From Escherichia phage DCP548: DNA of 64,000 nt. The stretch lies in sequence record PQ671645.1; one strand, 5' to 3'. The position numbers and the translations under genes were made by a program. This document shows, in pieces, positions 4,013 to 59,883 of this stretch. The notes below the pieces were generated by a model. That model made no database searches, was not told the DNA's origin, and was given only the letters and a program-made list of their open reading frames with translations. Within the stretch, counting starts at the first letter, position 1; the number at the start of each line of letters is the position of its first letter.

Positions 4013-4387
4013 TTAAAAATGTAATTTAGATACATCTGCGTTGATTTCACTTTGGTTTGCGTCATATGCAATTAAACGAACCGCTTTAGATGGGTCATTC
4101 AATGCATAGAAATGATGGAACATTGCTCGAACGATATCACCATTTACGAGTTCTACCTGGATAGGAGAACCTTTTTCGAGTTGGAAATGTTCATAAGCTT
4201 TGATGGTTCGCAGATAATCAAGTTTTTGATTTCCGGCTCCAACGATTTGTACGATACGTTTGCCCATGTTTTCCATACGAGATACAATAGTTTTAGGAGC
4301 AAGAATAACGTAGGTTGCCAGCGGAGAAACTACTTCAACAGTTGTGTTTTCGGTGATTGCAGTAAAAATTGCTTGAGACATATTCAT
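4013..4387 (-). CDS. hypothetical protein
   Basis: 124-aa minus ORF, ATG at 4387 with GAGAGG RBS; early promoter upstream. Confidence 0.5.
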   Translation of the reverse strand: MNMSQAIFTAITENTTVEVVSPLATYVILAPKTIVSRMENMGKRIVQIVGAGNQKLDYLRTIKAYEHFQLEKGSPIQVELVNGDIVRAMFHHFYALNDPSKAVRLIAYDANQSEINADVSKLHF

Positions 4388-4416
4388 AATGTTTTCCTCT
4401 CGGTTAGTGTAAGTAC

Positions 4417-4446
4417 ATCATATCATGCCTAGAGGGAGATGTAAAC
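4417..4446 (-). promoter_or_regulatory. early promoter upstream of ORF 4013..4387
   Basis: Minus GTTTAC, spacer, TGaTATGAT extended -10. Confidence 0.5.
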
Positions 4447-4453
4447 CCCGAAA

Positions 4454-4469
4454 GGAGACCGAAGTCTCC
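4454..4469 (-). other. intercistronic RNA hairpin with UUCG tetraloop
   Basis: GGAGAC-UUCG-GUCUCC on minus-strand RNA just after the gene 41 stop, directly upstream of an early promoter. Confidence 0.5.
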
Positions 4470-4475
4470 TTTTTA

Positions 4476-5918
4476 TTAAAATTTTAACTCATTGGCTAAG
4501 CTATCTAGGTCAGCACGTGTTGCTTTGGCTTTACCTACGCGTTCCGTACGATTCACCTCTGCCTGACGCATCTGAGCACCTGCGTTTTCATTTACTGTGT
4601 TAGGTGTGTTCATGCCTTCTTGCTCAATCTCAACCCATTTCTGATTGCCTTTACGTACACCCATCAGGAATTTATTCCACTTATTCTTATCACCATATCG
4701 TGATTTGATTTGTTTGATAAGTTGTTGTTCAGCTTGTGCAAGTTCTTCGGTTTCAATTACGGCCAACATGAAATCTGCCGTTGCTGGTAAACCTGCTGAT
4801 TCTGCAATATCGCTCATGTTCATATCCGAAGCATCCCATGCTGCACGTCCTACTTGAGCTGCAGTCCATAGAACTGTTTCAGATTCTACTGCTAATGCAC
4901 GAAGTTCTTCTGCGATAGCTTTAACTAATGTGTAACTATTTTCAGTGTAAACTCTGATGCGACAAGACCCACAAATACCTAAGTAATCAACCATGATTAC
5001 AGATGGCACAAAGTTCTTCTTGAGTTTCAATTCATTAAGCAATGCACGGAATGTATTAGCATTAGCTCCGCCAGTAGGATACTGTTTAACTACTAAACGT
5101 CCTAATGTGGATTTTGAACGCCATTTTTCCATCTTGGCTTTATATTCAGCATAAGATACGTTACCATCATCGATATCATCGAGCGATACGTCAAGCATAT
5201 TTGCATCTATACGCTTAGCACAAACTTCTTCAGCCATTTCCATGGAAATATAAAGAACATTATGTCCTGTTTGAAGATAATCTGCAGCAAGTGAACAAAG
5301 GCCTAAAGATTTACCAACGTTAACACCGGCCATTAAAACATTCAGTGTACCGGTTTCAGCACCACCTTTAGTGATTTTATTCAGAATGTTTAATTTGAAC
5401 GGGACCTTACGTGCTTTGTTCAGATAAGAAAGCCAGCGTGCTTCGTAGTCTTCCATCCAGTCGTGTCCAACATAACTATCAAACGAAATTGAAAGTGCTT
5501 GACGCATAATATCAGGAATAGCTCCTACGTCAGGCATTTTCTTGTTACGTTGTTCTGGAGGTAGTTCAGCATTAGACTGAATCTCAATGATTTTGGATGT
5601 AGCATTATACATCGCTTTTTGCTGGACATATTTCTCAGTTTCTTTAACCAACCATTCGTGGTCTTCAGGAGTATCAGCCAATTTTTCAATTAGGTCTGAA
5701 GTTCCTTTATATTCGGCTTCAGTTAAAGAACTGTTATCTAAAGCCACCTTTAATGCATTTATAGATGGCATTGCATTATATTCGTTAACGTGGCTCTTTA
5801 TAATTTTAAATACATTTTTTGCCGGTCCACGCTCAAAATACTCAGAATCCATATAAGGCCAGACCTTAGAAAAATAAGCCTGGTCATATACTAGATGAGA
5901 CAAAATAATTTCTACCAC
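4476..5918 (-). CDS. 41: replicative DNA helicase (DnaB-like) gp41
   Basis: 480 aa; Walker A GVNVGKS; size and synteny match T4 gp41. Confidence 0.93.
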   Translation of the reverse strand: MVEIILSHLVYDQAYFSKVWPYMDSEYFERGPAKNVFKIIKSHVNEYNAMPSINALKVALDNSSLTEAEYKGTSDLIEKLADTPEDHEWLVKETEKYVQQKAMYNATSKIIEIQSNAELPPEQRNKKMPDVGAIPDIMRQALSISFDSYVGHDWMEDYEARWLSYLNKARKVPFKLNILNKITKGGAETGTLNVLMAGVNVGKSLGLCSLAADYLQTGHNVLYISMEMAEEVCAKRIDANMLDVSLDDIDDGNVSYAEYKAKMEKWRSKSTLGRLVVKQYPTGGANANTFRALLNELKLKKNFVPSVIMVDYLGICGSCRIRVYTENSYTLVKAIAEELRALAVESETVLWTAAQVGRAAWDASDMNMSDIAESAGLPATADFMLAVIETEELAQAEQQLIKQIKSRYGDKNKWNKFLMGVRKGNQKWVEIEQEGMNTPNTVNENAGAQMRQAEVNRTERVGKAKATRADLDSLANELKF

Positions 5919-8083: not shown

Positions 8084-8983
8084 TTATTCCTCGATTACGA
8101 CATCTTCGTATTTAGGTATATTATACGGTGAAGAAATTAAAGCATTAAAGTAGATGAACTCACCAAGACCTGGATGGAATACTTCTTCAGGATTTTCGAA
8201 ATATTGAATCTTCGGACGTCCTTTAAGAATTTGATAGTACTCAGTTTTAGTTGGATTAAAAATTCGAATCAGCGCTTCTTCAGGATACTTATTTCTGTCG
8301 AAACTATTATTTGGATCAGTTATATAAAGCGGTTGACCTAATTGAATTGCGCATTCAACCACTTGTTCAAAACGATAGCATGGGTCACTAATTCGAAATG
8401 GATGAAAAATACCATCTAGATGAATAGGAGCCAAATCACCTACAAGACGCTGCATGACGGAAGGACGTATAACTTTCTGTGTTACGATAATCTTATTACC
8501 ATCCGCACCAGCGTTAACCAGCACTTCTTTTTGACGTTCATTCAACACAGTTGTTTGAAGTGAACGATTAACCGACAACATATCGGTTTTTAAGAATTCG
8601 TCAATATAAAAACGTGGTTTATTAGGGTCTGCGGTGATATTGAAATTGAATTCTACGTCAAAAGTGCCGTCATATCCAGTGATATCTGTGATTAGAAAAT
8701 CACAATCATAATAAGCAATTAATGAATCAACCACAAATTCATTTTCAGACCAGAAATATTTACGAGTGTTATACGCGTTATCTTTATACCATAATGGAAC
8801 AAACTTAAATTCCGGAAAAAGACGTTCACATTCTTTAATATCAGATGCATTACGTGGATATGTAATCACATCACCTGGATTAGCACGGTGCAAATGAAGT
8901 TGGAAGTTGCCATCCTTAAGGATAGCATACTGTCCAGTTTCATAAGACCGCATACTCAAGATAGGTACGCGGAAAATAGCCAT
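8084..8983 (-). CDS. hypothetical protein, candidate DNA sugar transferase (unsupported by motif)
   Basis: 299-aa ORF tightly coupled to gene 42 stop; no motif recognised; candidate role only by position in the glucosyltransferase slot. Confidence 0.45.
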   Translation of the reverse strand: MAIFRVPILSMRSYETGQYAILKDGNFQLHLHRANPGDVITYPRNASDIKECERLFPEFKFVPLWYKDNAYNTRKYFWSENEFVVDSLIAYYDCDFLITDITGYDGTFDVEFNFNITADPNKPRFYIDEFLKTDMLSVNRSLQTTVLNERQKEVLVNAGADGNKIIVTQKVIRPSVMQRLVGDLAPIHLDGIFHPFRISDPCYRFEQVVECAIQLGQPLYITDPNNSFDRNKYPEEALIRIFNPTKTEYYQILKGRPKIQYFENPEEVFHPGLGEFIYFNALISSPYNIPKYEDVVIEE

Positions 8984-9699
8984 TAGTCAAGGAATCCTTT
9001 AACATAATCAAAATCACGTTCAAACACATGGGCACTTACCATGGTATGAGTATAATCACCAACTTCTACACCGCATTCGTTAGCGATATAATGAAGTAAT
9101 TTTCCTTGGAGATAAAAATCCAACTGCATAACAACAGCACAGTTCTGAGAACGCATATGACAGTGGGTATAAAGCTTACCATCACGAATATAATAAGTCA
9201 CTGAGTCAGTACATGGATATTCAAGCGTTTCATCCGAATCAAGCAAAGCCTGATCTGAACTTTCAAGAATTTGAAACACAACTCTTCGTGAATTAGGTTT
9301 CTCTTTAAGTTCTTTGAGAAGAGCTGGTAACTGGGCCGCAATTCGTGGACCATAGAAAGTGTTGAAGTTCGCCGGCAAAACATCTGATTTTGGTTTAGAA
9401 ATAAATTTAGCGACATTAGGATACGCCTTAAACGCTTCTTCTGCGTTGGTACCACCAGAAATCATAAACTTCCAGAAATCTTCAGCATATTCATAAGAGA
9501 TGCGATTAATACGTGGGTCGGTCATTTTGAATGATGAAGGGGTATCAACAACTACTGTCATAGACCCAATTTCATTACAACGTCCAATACGAGAATCAGT
9601 TACGAATTCCGGGTTTTCTAAAATTTCACGATTGACAGCTTTAAATGCGGATTGAAAATCTGCGGCTTTAATATATTTCATTGTGTTATGTTTTCCCAT
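8983..9699 (-). CDS. 42: deoxycytidylate 5-hydroxymethyltransferase gp42 (thymidylate-synthase family)
   Basis: 238 aa; TS-family core RRVVFQ and catalytic Cys context YPCTDSVTYY; synteny. Confidence 0.8.
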   Translation of the reverse strand: MGKHNTMKYIKAADFQSAFKAVNREILENPEFVTDSRIGRCNEIGSMTVVVDTPSSFKMTDPRINRISYEYAEDFWKFMISGGTNAEEAFKAYPNVAKFISKPKSDVLPANFNTFYGPRIAAQLPALLKELKEKPNSRRVVFQILESSDQALLDSDETLEYPCTDSVTYYIRDGKLYTHCHMRSQNCAVVMQLDFYLQGKLLHYIANECGVEVGDYTHTMVSAHVFERDFDYVKGFLD

Positions 9700-9717
9700 G
9701 TTTACCTCAATACAGTT

Positions 9718-9741
9718 ATTATATACTCAATTCATAAAGCT
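9718..9741 (-). promoter_or_regulatory. middle-type promoter candidate upstream of gene 42
   Basis: Minus strand aAGCTTTA, 11 nt, TATAAT. Confidence 0.4.
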
Positions 9742-9880
9742 TATTTGAATTTCTTAGCGATGTTGATATAACGTAAAGCTTCAGCATCGATACTTCCAAG
9801 AACACTATGAAGAAATGCATCAGCGTAGTATTCTAGTTGAACAGGTTTCTTTAATCACTTTAGCCGCTTTAGTTTCAAAC

Positions 9881-9900
9881 AGGCCCATAAGGGCCTTTTT
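9881..9900 (+). terminator. terminator-like hairpin in plus-strand orientation (possibly bidirectional)
   Basis: AGGCCC-ATAA-GGGCCT followed by TTTTT on the plus strand, inside a 278-bp gap without a convincing ORF. Confidence 0.4.
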
Positions 9901-9977
9901 AAGAATTTGTTCGTTGCTGTTAATTTTCGTAGTCAAAATCTCTTCGTTAAGTTGGTGGTTAAAAGTTTTTCTAGAAA

Positions 9978-11138
9978 TCATTCTGGGTACCTCAAAGCGT
10001 CGTCAGAGTTAGTTATATCAATAATAGATATAGAATTTTCTGATAACCCATTTTTAGATAACTGACGTTTATAATATCTTTCACAATATGTACACGTCGT
10101 CCCGCAGATTTCATTAGCACAATCGAAATCTGGATGTTTGAACCACCTTTTTTCTAAAAAGCCATCTAACAAAGAGGTTTCAATATTTACCGTATGTGAA
10201 AACTCGGTCTCATTTTCAAGAGTGAAAATGGTCTCTAAAGGCTTCCACAATTCCAACAAATTACCTTCAAATTTTTCAGAAGCATAAGCTTCAAGAACTT
10301 TCAAAATGTAGTCTGTGCTACCTGTACGTCCTGAAACTTTGAATTGAGTGATACCAATATCATTATAAAGTTTCAAATCTTGAGGACGAACAAAACGAGT
10401 TCTCAACCAGTTAAATGGGTCTGTATCACGAGCTTTAATACAGTGCTGCATAGGATATCCGTTTAAGGATTTAGCATCATCAGCTGTAACATCAGTACTA
10501 TGGAAAATATAGCAAGAGTCACGATAGCTACAATGTGTTGTATACCCTTTACCAGCATTAGAACAGAACTCATTTACAAGAACTTCAAATATTATATTGT
10601 TCTTATTACAAAACTCTGCTGCACGCTTCAGGAAAGAAACTGAACGGTTCTTATGAATTCCACAGCAGACCTTTTTGATATTATATTGGTCGTGCAAGTA
10701 TTTGATTTGAGTTACAGCATCGACATGTAGAATTGTTGAAACTTCAATCTCAATGTCTTTATTGACTTCACGAACAATTTCCATAACAACAGGGTTAGCG
10801 ATAGTAATACGCCATACGCCTATTGACCAAAGATACTGAACATAATCCTGAATAGCTTTCTTCTTCCACTCAACTAGTTCTCTTTTTGAACCAGGATTTA
10901 TCGTGTTGAGTGTATAGTTAAAGCAAATACCTAATTCGTTACAACGTTTAACGTAATCTTCTAACATCTTTTTGTCAACGTCAGGAAGCCTAAAATCAGG
11001 TCTGGCTGCTACAAAAGCCATTTCTCTTGTAGAGCCGTATACTTCATTTATCAAGCTATTAGGATAAGTTTTATTGAGCTCTACGATTTTATCAAGAAGA
11101 GCTAAATCAAAATTCGTTCCGATTTTAAAGGTATTCAT
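9978..11138 (-). CDS. Cys-rich enzyme of unknown function (possible Fe-S protein)
   Basis: 386 aa; C-terminal FDCANEICGTTCTYC (C-x4-C-x3-C-x2-C) plus EFCSNAGKGYTTHCSYRDSC; first gene downstream of the sugar-pathway genes. Confidence 0.5.
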   Translation of the reverse strand: MNTFKIGTNFDLALLDKIVELNKTYPNSLINEVYGSTREMAFVAARPDFRLPDVDKKMLEDYVKRCNELGICFNYTLNTINPGSKRELVEWKKKAIQDYVQYLWSIGVWRITIANPVVMEIVREVNKDIEIEVSTILHVDAVTQIKYLHDQYNIKKVCCGIHKNRSVSFLKRAAEFCNKNNIIFEVLVNEFCSNAGKGYTTHCSYRDSCYIFHSTDVTADDAKSLNGYPMQHCIKARDTDPFNWLRTRFVRPQDLKLYNDIGITQFKVSGRTGSTDYILKVLEAYASEKFEGNLLELWKPLETIFTLENETEFSHTVNIETSLLDGFLEKRWFKHPDFDCANEICGTTCTYCERYYKRQLSKNGLSENSISIIDITNSDDALRYPE

Positions 11139-11192: not shown

Positions 11193-11594
11193 TTATAGAT
11201 TCGGTTTATATGATTTAAATGTTTCGAATTCGCCTTTATTCATAAGAGCTTTGAATTCGTCAGGACGCATAGCTTTGTCGTCGATAATCCAATCATATAC
11301 TGGTTTATGTGTTAGCAAATTATGGTACTTCAAGCCAATGTTTGCCAAGTTCTGAATCAGACTTGGGAGAATGTCAATTGCTATACGGCCAGGACCTACT
11401 GACTTCATACCGCGAGCAGTGTAAAGCGTTATTGTATGCCCTGCATCATACAGGGCATTAATGGCAGACACCATTTCGACGTCTGGTTTGAAGTTCACGT
11501 AATCACGATTGTTATTCCACTCTGTTATACAATCATCGACATCAAAACAAAGATTAAGCATGTTTTCTACACGGTGCATTAGATTCGTTCCCAT
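11193..11594 (-). CDS. HAD-superfamily phosphatase, KdsC-like
   Basis: 133 aa; motif I FDVDDCI, later TARG and K...DD motifs. Confidence 0.6.
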   Translation of the reverse strand: MGTNLMHRVENMLNLCFDVDDCITEWNNNRDYVNFKPDVEMVSAINALYDAGHTITLYTARGMKSVGPGRIAIDILPSLIQNLANIGLKYHNLLTHKPVYDWIIDDKAMRPDEFKALMNKGEFETFKSYKPNL

Positions 11595-13264
11595 TGATGA
11601 GTGATATCGCCACCGATTGGACGATAGGAAACACCAGTTTCTTTATCAGTTAGTACCCATTTACCAGGATTTTTTGTAATCAGAGTAGCCGTTACAGGTT
11701 CTGCTACGTCATAACTAATAGAGCCGTCCTGAAGTACACGGCCCATGTTACGTAATTGCTTAGTCAGAAGTTCCATACCTTTATAATATGCGGCTACCGC
11801 TTTAAGTGGATTATTCTTGAAATAACCACCTAATGCAATCCAGATAATTGCCACTGCCAAATGATGATACTCGTTAAACGAACTCATCTTTCCATATTTG
11901 TAAACTAATGGATTGATGTTAATAGTCACATTACAAGTTGTTTCATCAATAGTAAATTGCCCCCAGGTCGGATTAGCATTGAATTCATCATAACCTGAAA
12001 CAGCATAAAGCACTTTAGCTTCATCATACAATTTTGGCCCATAAATCTTGGTTTCGCCAAAATATCCACGAGGGTCGATAAACTTGACTTCACCATTATC
12101 AGTAATCATAGTATTACTAAAGTTCGGGTCACCATGAATAACAGAGTACTGTCCCTGAGAACGGTTATGATAACGAATAAGGTGTTCTAAAGCTTGTTTC
12201 AGCATTGGCTTCAGACGCCCAATCTTAGTGTAGTTCACATGTGTGATTTTACCAAATGAATCAATCAATGGTTGAATACTTTCACAACGATCAATAACTT
12301 TCGTATAGAACTCTTTAGTGAAATCACGACGAACAGTTTCAGGACTTACAAAATAAGTGTCTGTGCTGAATTTCAGTGCGTCTAAAATTGCATCAACAAT
12401 TTGTGGACGAGCAAGACTTGATTTGGATTTAATATATTCAAATGCCGGCTTACCTTTAATGCGTTCCATTTCAAAGTTATTTTCATTAACAGAAACTAAC
12501 TGAGGAACTGAATCTGATTTCACTTTAAGATACCATGAAATCTCATCTTTCTGAAGAGCTCGGCCCTGTTCGGTTAATGCGAATTTAGTTACAGTTTCTT
12601 CACCGATTTCAACTGCATTAAAACTACGATTAAGTTCACGAACTTCATGAGCCTTTTCAAGTTTAGGCATATCACCTAAATCAATTAGATTCATAAGCTC
12701 TGATTTATTGAATGCGCTGCCGTAAAGGAATTCTACGAAATCACGTCCTTTGCAGTATTCATGAATTTCCTCATCAGTAGAACCCATATAGAATTCCCAG
12801 TCTTTGAACTGATAAATTCCTACAACATTACCACCTGTTGAACCTACGTTAGTGATATTTTCACCGTCGAAATTATATCGACATTCGTCACCCTTAACAT
12901 AGATTGCGTTAACATTCCAAGACCATGAACCAAAATCGGGAATAATATCACACCAGTTAACAATTACATTATGGCCGTCTAAATCTTTGTGCAATTTAGC
13001 AAGAGCATAAGCAGAACCATATGCTTCATCAACTGTACGAATAGTCACATTGAACCCTTCTTGCTCACAATAAGCTCGAACAGTTTCAGCAAATTTTGAA
13101 TGAACTACTACAATAATTTCGTCTGCGCCAAGGTCAGAATAAATTGTATACAAATTGCTCAGAATAGTGTCTTGTTTATAGTTAACAAGCACCTTAGGAA
13201 TATGATGCGTTATTGGATACAAACGAGTTGCCAGTCCAGCACCAAGAATAACAGCTTTTTTCAT
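11579..13264 (-). CDS. bifunctional sugar-1-phosphate nucleotidyltransferase / kinase (LicC-LicA-like fusion)
   Basis: 561 aa; N-terminal ILGAGLATRLYPIT...PK (GxGxRL nucleotidyltransferase signature); C-terminal HGDPNFSN and FIDPRG (Brenner and DFG-like kinase motifs). Confidence 0.65.
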   Translation of the reverse strand: MKKAVILGAGLATRLYPITHHIPKVLVNYKQDTILSNLYTIYSDLGADEIIVVVHSKFAETVRAYCEQEGFNVTIRTVDEAYGSAYALAKLHKDLDGHNVIVNWCDIIPDFGSWSWNVNAIYVKGDECRYNFDGENITNVGSTGGNVVGIYQFKDWEFYMGSTDEEIHEYCKGRDFVEFLYGSAFNKSELMNLIDLGDMPKLEKAHEVRELNRSFNAVEIGEETVTKFALTEQGRALQKDEISWYLKVKSDSVPQLVSVNENNFEMERIKGKPAFEYIKSKSSLARPQIVDAILDALKFSTDTYFVSPETVRRDFTKEFYTKVIDRCESIQPLIDSFGKITHVNYTKIGRLKPMLKQALEHLIRYHNRSQGQYSVIHGDPNFSNTMITDNGEVKFIDPRGYFGETKIYGPKLYDEAKVLYAVSGYDEFNANPTWGQFTIDETTCNVTININPLVYKYGKMSSFNEYHHLAVAIIWIALGGYFKNNPLKAVAAYYKGMELLTKQLRNMGRVLQDGSISYDVAEPVTATLITKNPGKWVLTDKETGVSYRPIGGDITHQWERI

Positions 13265-58320: not shown

Positions 58321-58348
58321 AAAAAGCCCCAACCTTTCGGAAGGGGCT
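58321..58348 (-). terminator. rho-independent terminator
   Basis: Minus-strand AGCCCCUUCC-GAAA-GGUUGGGGCU then UUUUU; closes the 58349..58659 non-coding region. Confidence 0.65.
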
Positions 58349-58659
58349 ATGCCTTGCGGCAACCTTGTCGGGGTTCCACCTGCTAAGGCAAGTGTTTGTA
58401 CGAAACGCCGGGATTCGAACCCGGTTATTAAGCAGTTGACGCTACTCAATATTTTTAAAAGGCCATATCTCGACCATATCCGAACGTTCCGTCAAAAACG
58501 CTACTCGGCTTACGGCAAAGATATTTCCTCGAATCGATAATTCTGTGCGCCGTTTCTGCTGTGATGTAAGGGGATATTAACAAATCGTAAAGATTTATTA
58601 AGACCAGTCCTTACGCAGGGAACATCAGTCCGACGACTTACCGGTAGCGACCCGGCTTC
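58349..58659 (-). ncRNA. candidate structured RNA region with a tRNA-like T-arm and acceptor
   Basis: 310 bp with no ORF, bracketed by a CDS stop and a terminator; minus strand contains CCGGG-TTCGAAT-CCCGG plus a 7-bp acceptor pairing (plus-strand 58400..58491), but I could not fold a canonical D arm or anticodon arm. Confidence 0.3.
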
Positions 58660-59808: not shown

Positions 59809-59883
59809 TGGTGACCCTGGCTGGTTTCGATCCAGCTACCTATCAGTTATGAGCTGACAGCTCTCCCATTGAGCTACAGGGCC
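59809..59883 (-). tRNA. tRNA, anticodon CAU (Met or Ile2), with encoded CCA
   Basis: Hand-folded cloverleaf on minus strand: acceptor GGCCCTG/CAGGGTC, D-arm GCTC-AATGGGA-GAGC, anticodon loop CTCATAA, T-arm GCTGG-ATCGAAA-CCAGC, 3' ACCA. Confidence 0.7.

Follow-up and report, generated by a model that had tools for sequence, protein, structure and literature searches.

A conserved small gene broken by a frameshift, with a palindrome in its coding sequence, in the DNA-modification cluster of an RB69-like phage

Background

In phage T4, middle promoters depend on MotA and AsiA and consist of a MotA box near -30, 11-13 nt and a sigma-70 -10 element. Early and middle transcription units of T4 also contain stable GC-rich stem-loops and leaky intrinsic terminators. 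Template-switch mutagenesis at quasi-palindromes, the model of Ripley, was reportedly first described in T4 rII.

The closest described locus is the gene cluster responsible for arabinosylated 5-hydroxycytosine DNA, to which the minus-strand genes examined here correspond (PMC13326640). In RB69, gp48 is a flavin/O2-dependent 5-hydroxy-dCMP synthase and gp50, a U32-family protein, carries no assigned role (PMC13326640). Between these two genes, at exactly the position of the interval studied here, the RB69 record annotates a protein of 79 amino acids, RB69ORF049c (AAP75951.1).

Genomic context

The window is the whole stretch of DNA analysed, 64,000 nucleotides of Escherichia phage DCP548 (PQ671645.1), and the interval of interest occupies positions 9700-9977. 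For the 700 bases surrounding it, 153 phage records show 90-99% identity; every one is an RB69-like T4-type phage (Mosigvirus), with Shigella phage SSE1 as the best match (99.4%). Identity of the region to 153 Mosigvirus records is 97-99%. The source is an RB69-like T4-type phage (Mosigvirus), and the region is its gene cluster for arabinosylated 5-hydroxycytosine DNA. The neighbouring genes are as follows.

8084-8983, minus strand: gp46:47 arabinosyltransferase
8983-9699, minus strand: thymidylate-synthase homologue, RB69 gp48 (ORF list; Pfam Thymidylat_synt, E=2e-15)
9697-9699 and 9705-9708, minus strand: start signals of the gp48 homologue, ATG and GAGG respectively
9978-11138, minus strand: U32-family protein, RB69 gp50 homologue (ORF list; Pfam Peptidase_U32, E=7e-11; RB69ORF050c in the aligned RB69 record)
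9978-9980, minus strand: TGA stop codon of the U32 gene
11193-11594, minus strand: gp51 homologue, UDP-arabinose synthesis (PMC13326640)
11579-13264, minus strand: gp52:53 homologue, UDP-arabinose synthesis (PMC13326640)

The gene downstream of the interval, taken for gene 42 in an earlier reading of the sequence alone, is the ThyA-like 5-hydroxy-dCMP synthase (RB69 gp48) and not a dCMP hydroxymethylase (PMC13326640).

Two of the minus-strand genes, 8084-8983 (299 aa) and 11579-13264 (561 aa), are single ORFs in the window and are split in the RB69 GenBank record into genes 46+47 and 52+53. The splits have been attributed to sequencing errors in RB69 (PMC13326640), with which the uninterrupted ORFs agree.

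A broken copy of a conserved small gene

The sequence-only reading treated the interval as a non-coding gap without a convincing ORF. It is true that neither strand holds an ORF of 60 aa or more, barring a chance-looking 65-aa ORF on the plus strand. The description as non-coding, however, does not hold: alignment with RB69 and SSE1 identifies on the minus strand a homologue of RB69ORF049c whose frame is broken by one inserted base, so that a 53-aa ORF (9820-9981) is continued in the next frame as far as 9741-9743. Its parts are listed below.

9990-9993, minus strand: Shine-Dalgarno sequence GAGG ahead of the small ORF
9978-9981, minus strand: ATGA overlap joining the U32 stop TGA to the small-ORF start ATG (9979-9981), read from the sequence
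9820-9981, minus strand: truncated 53-aa ORF with 45 native codons, 8 out-of-frame codons and TGA (ORF list, alignment)
9846-9848: frameshift site, a TTT run with one extra base (minus strand GAAACC, against GAACC in RB69)
9741-9845, minus strand: out-of-frame C-terminal remainder PVQLEYYADAFLHSVLGSIDAEALRYINIAKKFK, ending with TAA at 9741-9743 and containing the conserved family motif (three-frame translation)

The extra base at 9846-9848 is the sole indel within the ORF when the window and SSE1 are compared with RB69, and the two frames, once joined, align with RB69ORF049c over its whole length. The shift falls at codon 46, and the C-terminal family motif, YYxDAFxHSxxGxIxxExxRHI, is encoded out of frame beyond it; an intact PHROG 8601 frame with this motif is not found in the window. 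Because of this, the window copy is, as judged from its sequence, a pseudogene or truncated allele of the RB69ORF049c family. In intact relatives, the 79-aa protein is encoded directly after the U32 gene and translationally coupled to it through the ATGA overlap; in the window, the extra A on the minus strand at codon 46 leaves at most a 53-aa fragment devoid of the third helix and the conserved motif. The lesion is a 1-nt insertion, which lends no support to the suggestion, made from sequence alone, that the gap marks a recombination scar.

The family is small. The RB69 protein matches phrog_8601 with E=2.8e-51, neither Pfam nor NCBIfam has a model for the 79-aa protein, and a phmmer search of 1.84 billion representative proteins returned five clusters only, all of this same small family, so that its members are very few and restricted to these phages. 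Using tblastn, members were detected in 162 phage records, always beside a U32 gene, with identity falling to about 45% in the Yersinia phages TG1, phiR1-RT and fHe-Yen9-01 and to 31% in Serratia phage 92A1. Intact alleles give Nei-Gojobori dN/dS values of 0.08-0.19 in five comparisons, indicating purifying selection. A conserved small ORF in relatives had been named in the earlier reading as an observation that would speak against a spacer; given its presence in these 162 records and the selection acting on it, the gap is therefore a disrupted gene and not an intergenic spacer.

In the family alignment the invariant residues (Y51, D54, A55, F56, H58, S59, G62, E67 and R70) lie almost all in the C-terminal half. 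An AlphaFold model of the protein is a confident three-helix bundle (pLDDT 85) in which that half forms the long third helix, and in this model it is exactly the conserved third helix that the frameshift at codon 46 removes. A Foldseek search against the PDB gave no informative structural neighbour for the 79-aa protein, none falling below E=4. The 4-nt ATGA overlap with the U32 gene is present in all the relatives examined that carry the small ORF (L003, L005, L010, L012, L017, L028, L030 and L032). The window copy resembles RB69ORF049c and PHROG 8601 in its position between U32 and ThyA-like genes, in the ATGA overlap and in its nucleotide identity of at least 97%, and differs from them in the break at codon 46, after which the conserved C-terminal helix cannot form.

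It is very probable that the interval as a whole consists of a small accessory gene inactivated by frameshift and a short promoter-bearing spacer before the next gene. The small gene itself is known, annotated and functionally uncharacterised. Since the hairpin described below sits within the old coding sequence, the window copy is a case of ordinary accessory-gene decay. The 53-aa fragment could keep some activity.

Probable recurrent loss in related phages

The same lesion is widespread. An exact 30-mer containing the extra base is found in 16 GenBank records that come from many different laboratories, among them JS09, SSE1, phi25-307, PHB12, ZQ3, 172859UKE1, PNJ-6, 308Ecol101PP, 348Ecol098PP, AV114-116, AV118 and EP02SG, and the corresponding 30-mer without it in 113 records. 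Products of the 53-aa type are also found in public data (P0027, P0029, P0030 and P0032). An exact-pattern scan of IMG/VR gave no match to the +A allele; that collection holds a single close Mosigvirus relative (L003).

Other lesions in an alignment of 14 sequences are diverse: +T in pEK20, +T and +A in HY126, +AG in RPN187 and AV113, +A with a 5-nt deletion in VIPECOMC06 and a 39-nt deletion in HX01. Moreover, proteins derived from metagenomes include nonsense truncations at 49 and 51 aa. About 11 of 56 RB69-like rows were disrupted in a spread tblastn sample. Among more distant relatives whose U32 gene is highly conserved (83-99% identity), the small ORF is present in some and missing from others; it may also be shortened, or survive as an N-terminal remnant that is fused to another ORF. 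It is absent or a remnant in L004, L006-L009, L011 and L013-L016. The variety of lesions, together with purifying selection on intact alleles, points to a dispensable gene that is decaying in some lineages, and we infer that it is being lost repeatedly across Mosigvirus lineages.

Phage HY126 is reported to make arabinosylated 5-hydroxycytosine (5hodC) (PMC13326640), and its copy of the small gene is doubly frameshifted. Because the small gene is broken in HY126 and in at least 14 further isolates, it appears to be dispensable for arabinosyl-5-hydroxycytosine DNA, at least in the laboratory, which shortens the list of genes required for this pathway. The SSE1 record leaves the interval unannotated and other records annotate only the truncated piece; records such as SSE1 can be corrected to show, in place of the gap, the conserved small gene with its frameshift.

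The spacer and its middle-promoter-like element

On the minus strand, 42 nt separate the old stop codon from the next ATG, and they include the series AAGCTTTA-TGAATTGAGTA-TATAAT.

9718-9740, minus strand: T4-type middle-promoter-like element, AAGCTTTA (GCTTTA at 9735-9740), 11-nt spacer, TATAAT (9718-9723)

The earlier reading had placed a middle-promoter-like element just upstream of the next gene, and it is borne out by motif counts: GCTTNA-N10-13-TATAAT has 8 matches in the window against 0.35 expected, of which 6 are on the minus (gene) strand. Tested against a MotA-type definition (box (a/t)(a/t)(a/t)TGCTT(t/c)A, 11-13 nt, -10 TAnnnT), the series ATAAGCTTTA, 11 nt, TATAAT fits the layout, with 6 of 7 core bases of the box. 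L029, the RB69-like relative that has diverged furthest (82% protein identity), keeps both the box and the -10 element and has a changed spacer; comparable box/-10 pairs can be recognised by eye ahead of the synthase gene in L030 and L032.

As in the MotA/AsiA-dependent middle promoters of T4, the AAGCTTTA box, an 11-nt spacer and TATAAT precede a nucleotide-metabolism gene, and the difference lies in the first base of the box, A and not T in the window (AGCTTTA versus TGCTTTA). From these last 42 nt, the 5-hydroxy-dCMP synthase gene would obtain both its ribosome-binding site and a MotA-dependent middle promoter, and on motif grounds we infer this to be the function of the spacer. A literature search found no Mosigvirus transcriptome.

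The hairpin within the small gene

The hairpin noticed in the earlier reading is present, as is the T-run that follows it on the plus strand: TTTT at 9897-9900, or five T when the last base of the stem is counted (9896-9900).

9877-9900: hairpin with its A-tract and T-tract; core stem-loop at 9881-9896 (plus strand AGGCCC/ATAA/GGGCCT; minus-strand loop TTAT)

The hairpin spans codons 28-35 of the small ORF (K K A L M G L F). In Markov-simulated sequence, a perfect 6-bp stem containing 4 or more G/C pairs arises by chance about 0.02 times per 278 nt. The window contains 31 matches (about 22 distinct hairpins) against about 5.6 expected per 64 kb. The 61-nt context of the hairpin folds moderately better than shuffled sequence on either strand (z = -2.4 and -2.3). 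The window has many strong hairpins, with about 75 clusters at or below -13.5 kcal/mol per 64 kb. A scan of 9400-10300 against Rfam gave no match beyond a chance lncRNA at E=0.23.

The 6-bp core of the stem is identical in all 14 aligned RB69-like sequences, and the loop takes the forms TGAT/ATCA and TTAT/ATAA, that is, two reverse-complement pairs. In VIPECOMC06 and 172859UKE1, inversion of the loop goes together with a change of the left arm that makes it exactly complementary to the right, correcting an A-G mismatch. As read from these alignments, loop inversion together with arm conversion is the mark left by template switching at a quasi-palindrome. The likeness to Ripley-type mutagenesis lies in loop inversions with one arm converted to the exact complement of the other; the difference is that here they are natural polymorphisms of phage isolates and not laboratory mutations. 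The hairpin illustrates palindrome loop inversion occurring naturally in a T4-like phage. At the protein level the inverted loops replace Leu-Met with His-Lys or His-Gln. The idea that they mark broken alleles only, as a result of relaxed constraint, is ruled out by the intact 79-aa allele P0018.

Across lineages the pairing stays in register through compensatory changes. Among nine sequences, to which 3 independent lineages chosen for keeping the hairpin register contribute, 96.7% of cells pair and 3 of 10 pairs change on both sides, a result reached by 0 of 500 shuffles; sliding the partner strand collapses the pairing of the stem. One stem pair is C-G in RB69-type phages, U-A in L029 and G-C in the Yersinia phages, so that a synonymous Ala site is tied to a Gly/Ser/Arg replacement. 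It should be kept in mind that template switching can generate matched stem changes without selection. The strong hairpin is absent from the site in L017, P0033 and L005, and in P0035 and 92A1 strong hairpins are displaced by several codons.

The occurrence of a strong hairpin past the U32 stop codon in every lineage seemed striking at first sight. A control with intervals of the same length reduced it to weak support: the per-locus fractions for a hairpin between the U32 and synthase genes are 0.07-0.59, and combining 12 distinct hairpin types by Fisher's method yields about 0.04, so that its presence there across lineages is weakly or marginally beyond chance.

Possible roles of the hairpin and alternative explanations

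The hairpin had been proposed to act in plus-strand orientation as an intrinsic terminator, stopping late or spurious antisense transcription before it enters the modification genes. By terminator criteria the plus strand does offer a 6-bp stem (5 GC pairs), a 4-nt loop and TTTT. Its T-run (9896-9900) directly follows the GC stem, the A5/T5 flank is retained in most RB69-like sequences, and the plus-strand fold is about as stable as that of the sense strand; moreover, the better U-run in the window follows the hairpin on the plus strand (TTTTT, versus GTTTG in the sense strand). However, the plus strand revealed neither a gene nor a late-promoter motif that such a terminator could serve. The window has no plus-strand ORF of at least 110 aa outside longer minus-strand ORFs, all five TATAAATA late-promoter motifs within the 64 kb are on the minus strand, and plus-strand sigma-70-like sites nearby are at chance level (4 versus 5.0 expected), so that the sequence motifs, on which this assessment is based, give no indication of transcription arriving from that side. 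The T-run is also the complement of lysine codons (AAA AAG), it is interrupted (AAACAG) in VIPECOMC06 and 172859UKE1, and the Yersinia-phage versions would show C-A mismatches in the antisense strand. A simple consensus terminator scan called the hairpin of the window on neither strand. Applied to relatives, the scan flags the antisense orientation only, because a G-T extension of the stem absorbs the sense T-run, and it is therefore uninformative on orientation. A plus-strand terminator is accordingly improbable.

If the hairpin is active, it would most likely act in the sense (minus) transcript, between the U32 gene and the middle promoter, by pausing or attenuating transcription or by protecting the 3' end of the RNA. 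The minus strand holds all the genes and all the late-promoter motifs, and the G-U pairs of the Yersinia versions pair in the sense strand only. In addition, L032 has AGGCCTC-AAT-GAGGCCT-TTTTT in sense orientation between the preceding stop codon and the promoter, and L004 likewise has a hairpin. These observations favour the sense strand, so that a role as attenuator, pause site or 3'-end protector in that strand seems the most likely one, if there is any; a looser role as a boundary or insulator between the U32 gene and the next promoter is possible. Like the stem-loops and leaky terminators of T4, the hairpin has a short GC stem, a tetraloop and A/T-tract flanks shortly before a middle promoter, and the hairpins of L032 and L004 are placed past the preceding stop codon. 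It is unlike them in lying inside a reading frame, in its imperfect sense U-run (GUUUG) and in its loop, UUAU/UGAU and not UUCG.

The perfect arms may also be kept simply by template switching during replication, and the palindrome would then be without function, a self-maintaining quasi-palindrome in a weakly constrained part of the gene. This is a substantial possibility, if one to which we give less than even weight. It would account for the four loop forms in two reverse-complement pairs and for the mismatch corrected together with an inversion; inverted loops occur in the intact allele P0018 as well as in broken ones, residues 32-33 are variable across the family, and equally strong hairpins are frequent in the window. 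It sits less easily with three different Watson-Crick pairs at a single stem position in lineages that diverge at many sites, with the replacement of Gly by Ser or Arg that one of the stem-pair changes requires, and with a strong hairpin at or near the site in the RB69-like, Yersinia, P0035 and 92A1 lineages. A quite different proposal would spare the gene: the +A allele might still yield full-length protein through programmed +1 frameshifting at AAA-GAA-A-CC. The same insertion site is indeed found on several sequence backgrounds, in 16 records, and most lesions lie downstream of the hairpin, a possible stimulator. The hairpin nevertheless precedes the shift site instead of following it, transcriptional slippage would need a longer run than A3, and ACC is a common A-site codon. 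The site offers no slippery or hungry-codon context, as judged against known +1 sites, and the lesions are heterogeneous (+T, +AG, -5, -39, nonsense codons) and not all of them rescuable; for these two reasons, programmed frameshifting is extremely improbable. Inactivation of the small gene by frameshift remains the preferred reading.

A more elaborate combination of these elements can be imagined, in which ORF049c and the hairpin would form a translation-coupled attenuator, the 79-aa protein would be an accessory subunit of the U32 enzyme, and U32, with prephenate supplied by the chorismate mutase that relatives have at the corresponding place, would produce 5-hydroxy-dCMP without oxygen. Were the attenuator part true, ribosomes that continue from the U32 gene into ORF049c would open the stem-loop so that transcription reads through, and uncoupled transcripts would pause, end or be trimmed at the hairpin; the balance between early read-through and MotA-driven expression of the 5-hydroxy-dCMP synthase operon would be fixed in this way. 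As a whole, the combination is speculative and very unlikely.

The neighbouring U32 gene

A number of relatives have, between their U32 and 5-hydroxy-dCMP synthase genes, an inserted gene for a type II chorismate mutase (Pfam CM_2, E=3.6e-13; NCBIfam models). It is sometimes fused to other sequence and is absent from RB69-like phages.

L005-L017, about 4160-4900 in each locus, and L028, 2740-2997: chorismate mutase region, the counterpart of 9700-9977 in the window

The U32-family enzymes TrhP, RlhA and UbiU/V are prephenate-dependent, O2-independent hydroxylases. This property, taken with a chorismate mutase beside the U32 gene, suggests a function for gp50: by analogy, the phage U32 protein might allow 5-hydroxy-dCMP to be made anaerobically, as a backup to the O2/flavin-dependent gp48. 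Although it lies outside the interval itself, the chorismate mutase beside the U32 gene is the more interesting lead. No link between phage U32 proteins and prephenate was found in a literature search. The similarity of the U32 protein to UbiU is weak (E=9e-4, far below the cutoff).

Near its C-terminus the U32 protein has a cysteine cluster, CANEICGTTCTYC, of the form CX3CX2C (residues 345-352; window 10083-10106, minus strand), which suggests an Fe-S site outside the Pfam U32 domain (residues 94-286).

In several of the relatives (L006-L011 and L017; for example L008:4178-4198), the N-terminal D-L-R-E-E-V of the chorismate mutase is encoded by a perfect GC-rich palindrome, GACCTCC-GNGA-GGAGGTC, with folding energies of -15 to -19.6 kcal/mol in 42-nt windows. 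This palindrome needs codon choices that are unusual for an AT-rich genome.

Other features of the window and of related loci

Long intergenic palindromes, several of them near-identical copies, directly follow GTTTACA-like motifs in the window. Judged by their sequence, they resemble early-promoter regions into which inverted repeats are built.

About 61361, 53854, 52294, 41263 and 26260: TAGGACTATGTTATAGTAGTCCTA-like palindromes
About 61693, 52566, 37097, 3984 and 45629, minus strand: further palindromes of the same recurring family
59809-59883, minus strand: tRNA-Met (CAT)
58343-58428: tRNA-like T-arm sequence, with no ARAGORN call in the scanned range

The NUMOD3 domain is typical of homing endonucleases. 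Inside the modification cluster of metagenomic relatives, ORFs with faint NUMOD3 matches occur at L030:684-1442 and L033:2555-3217.
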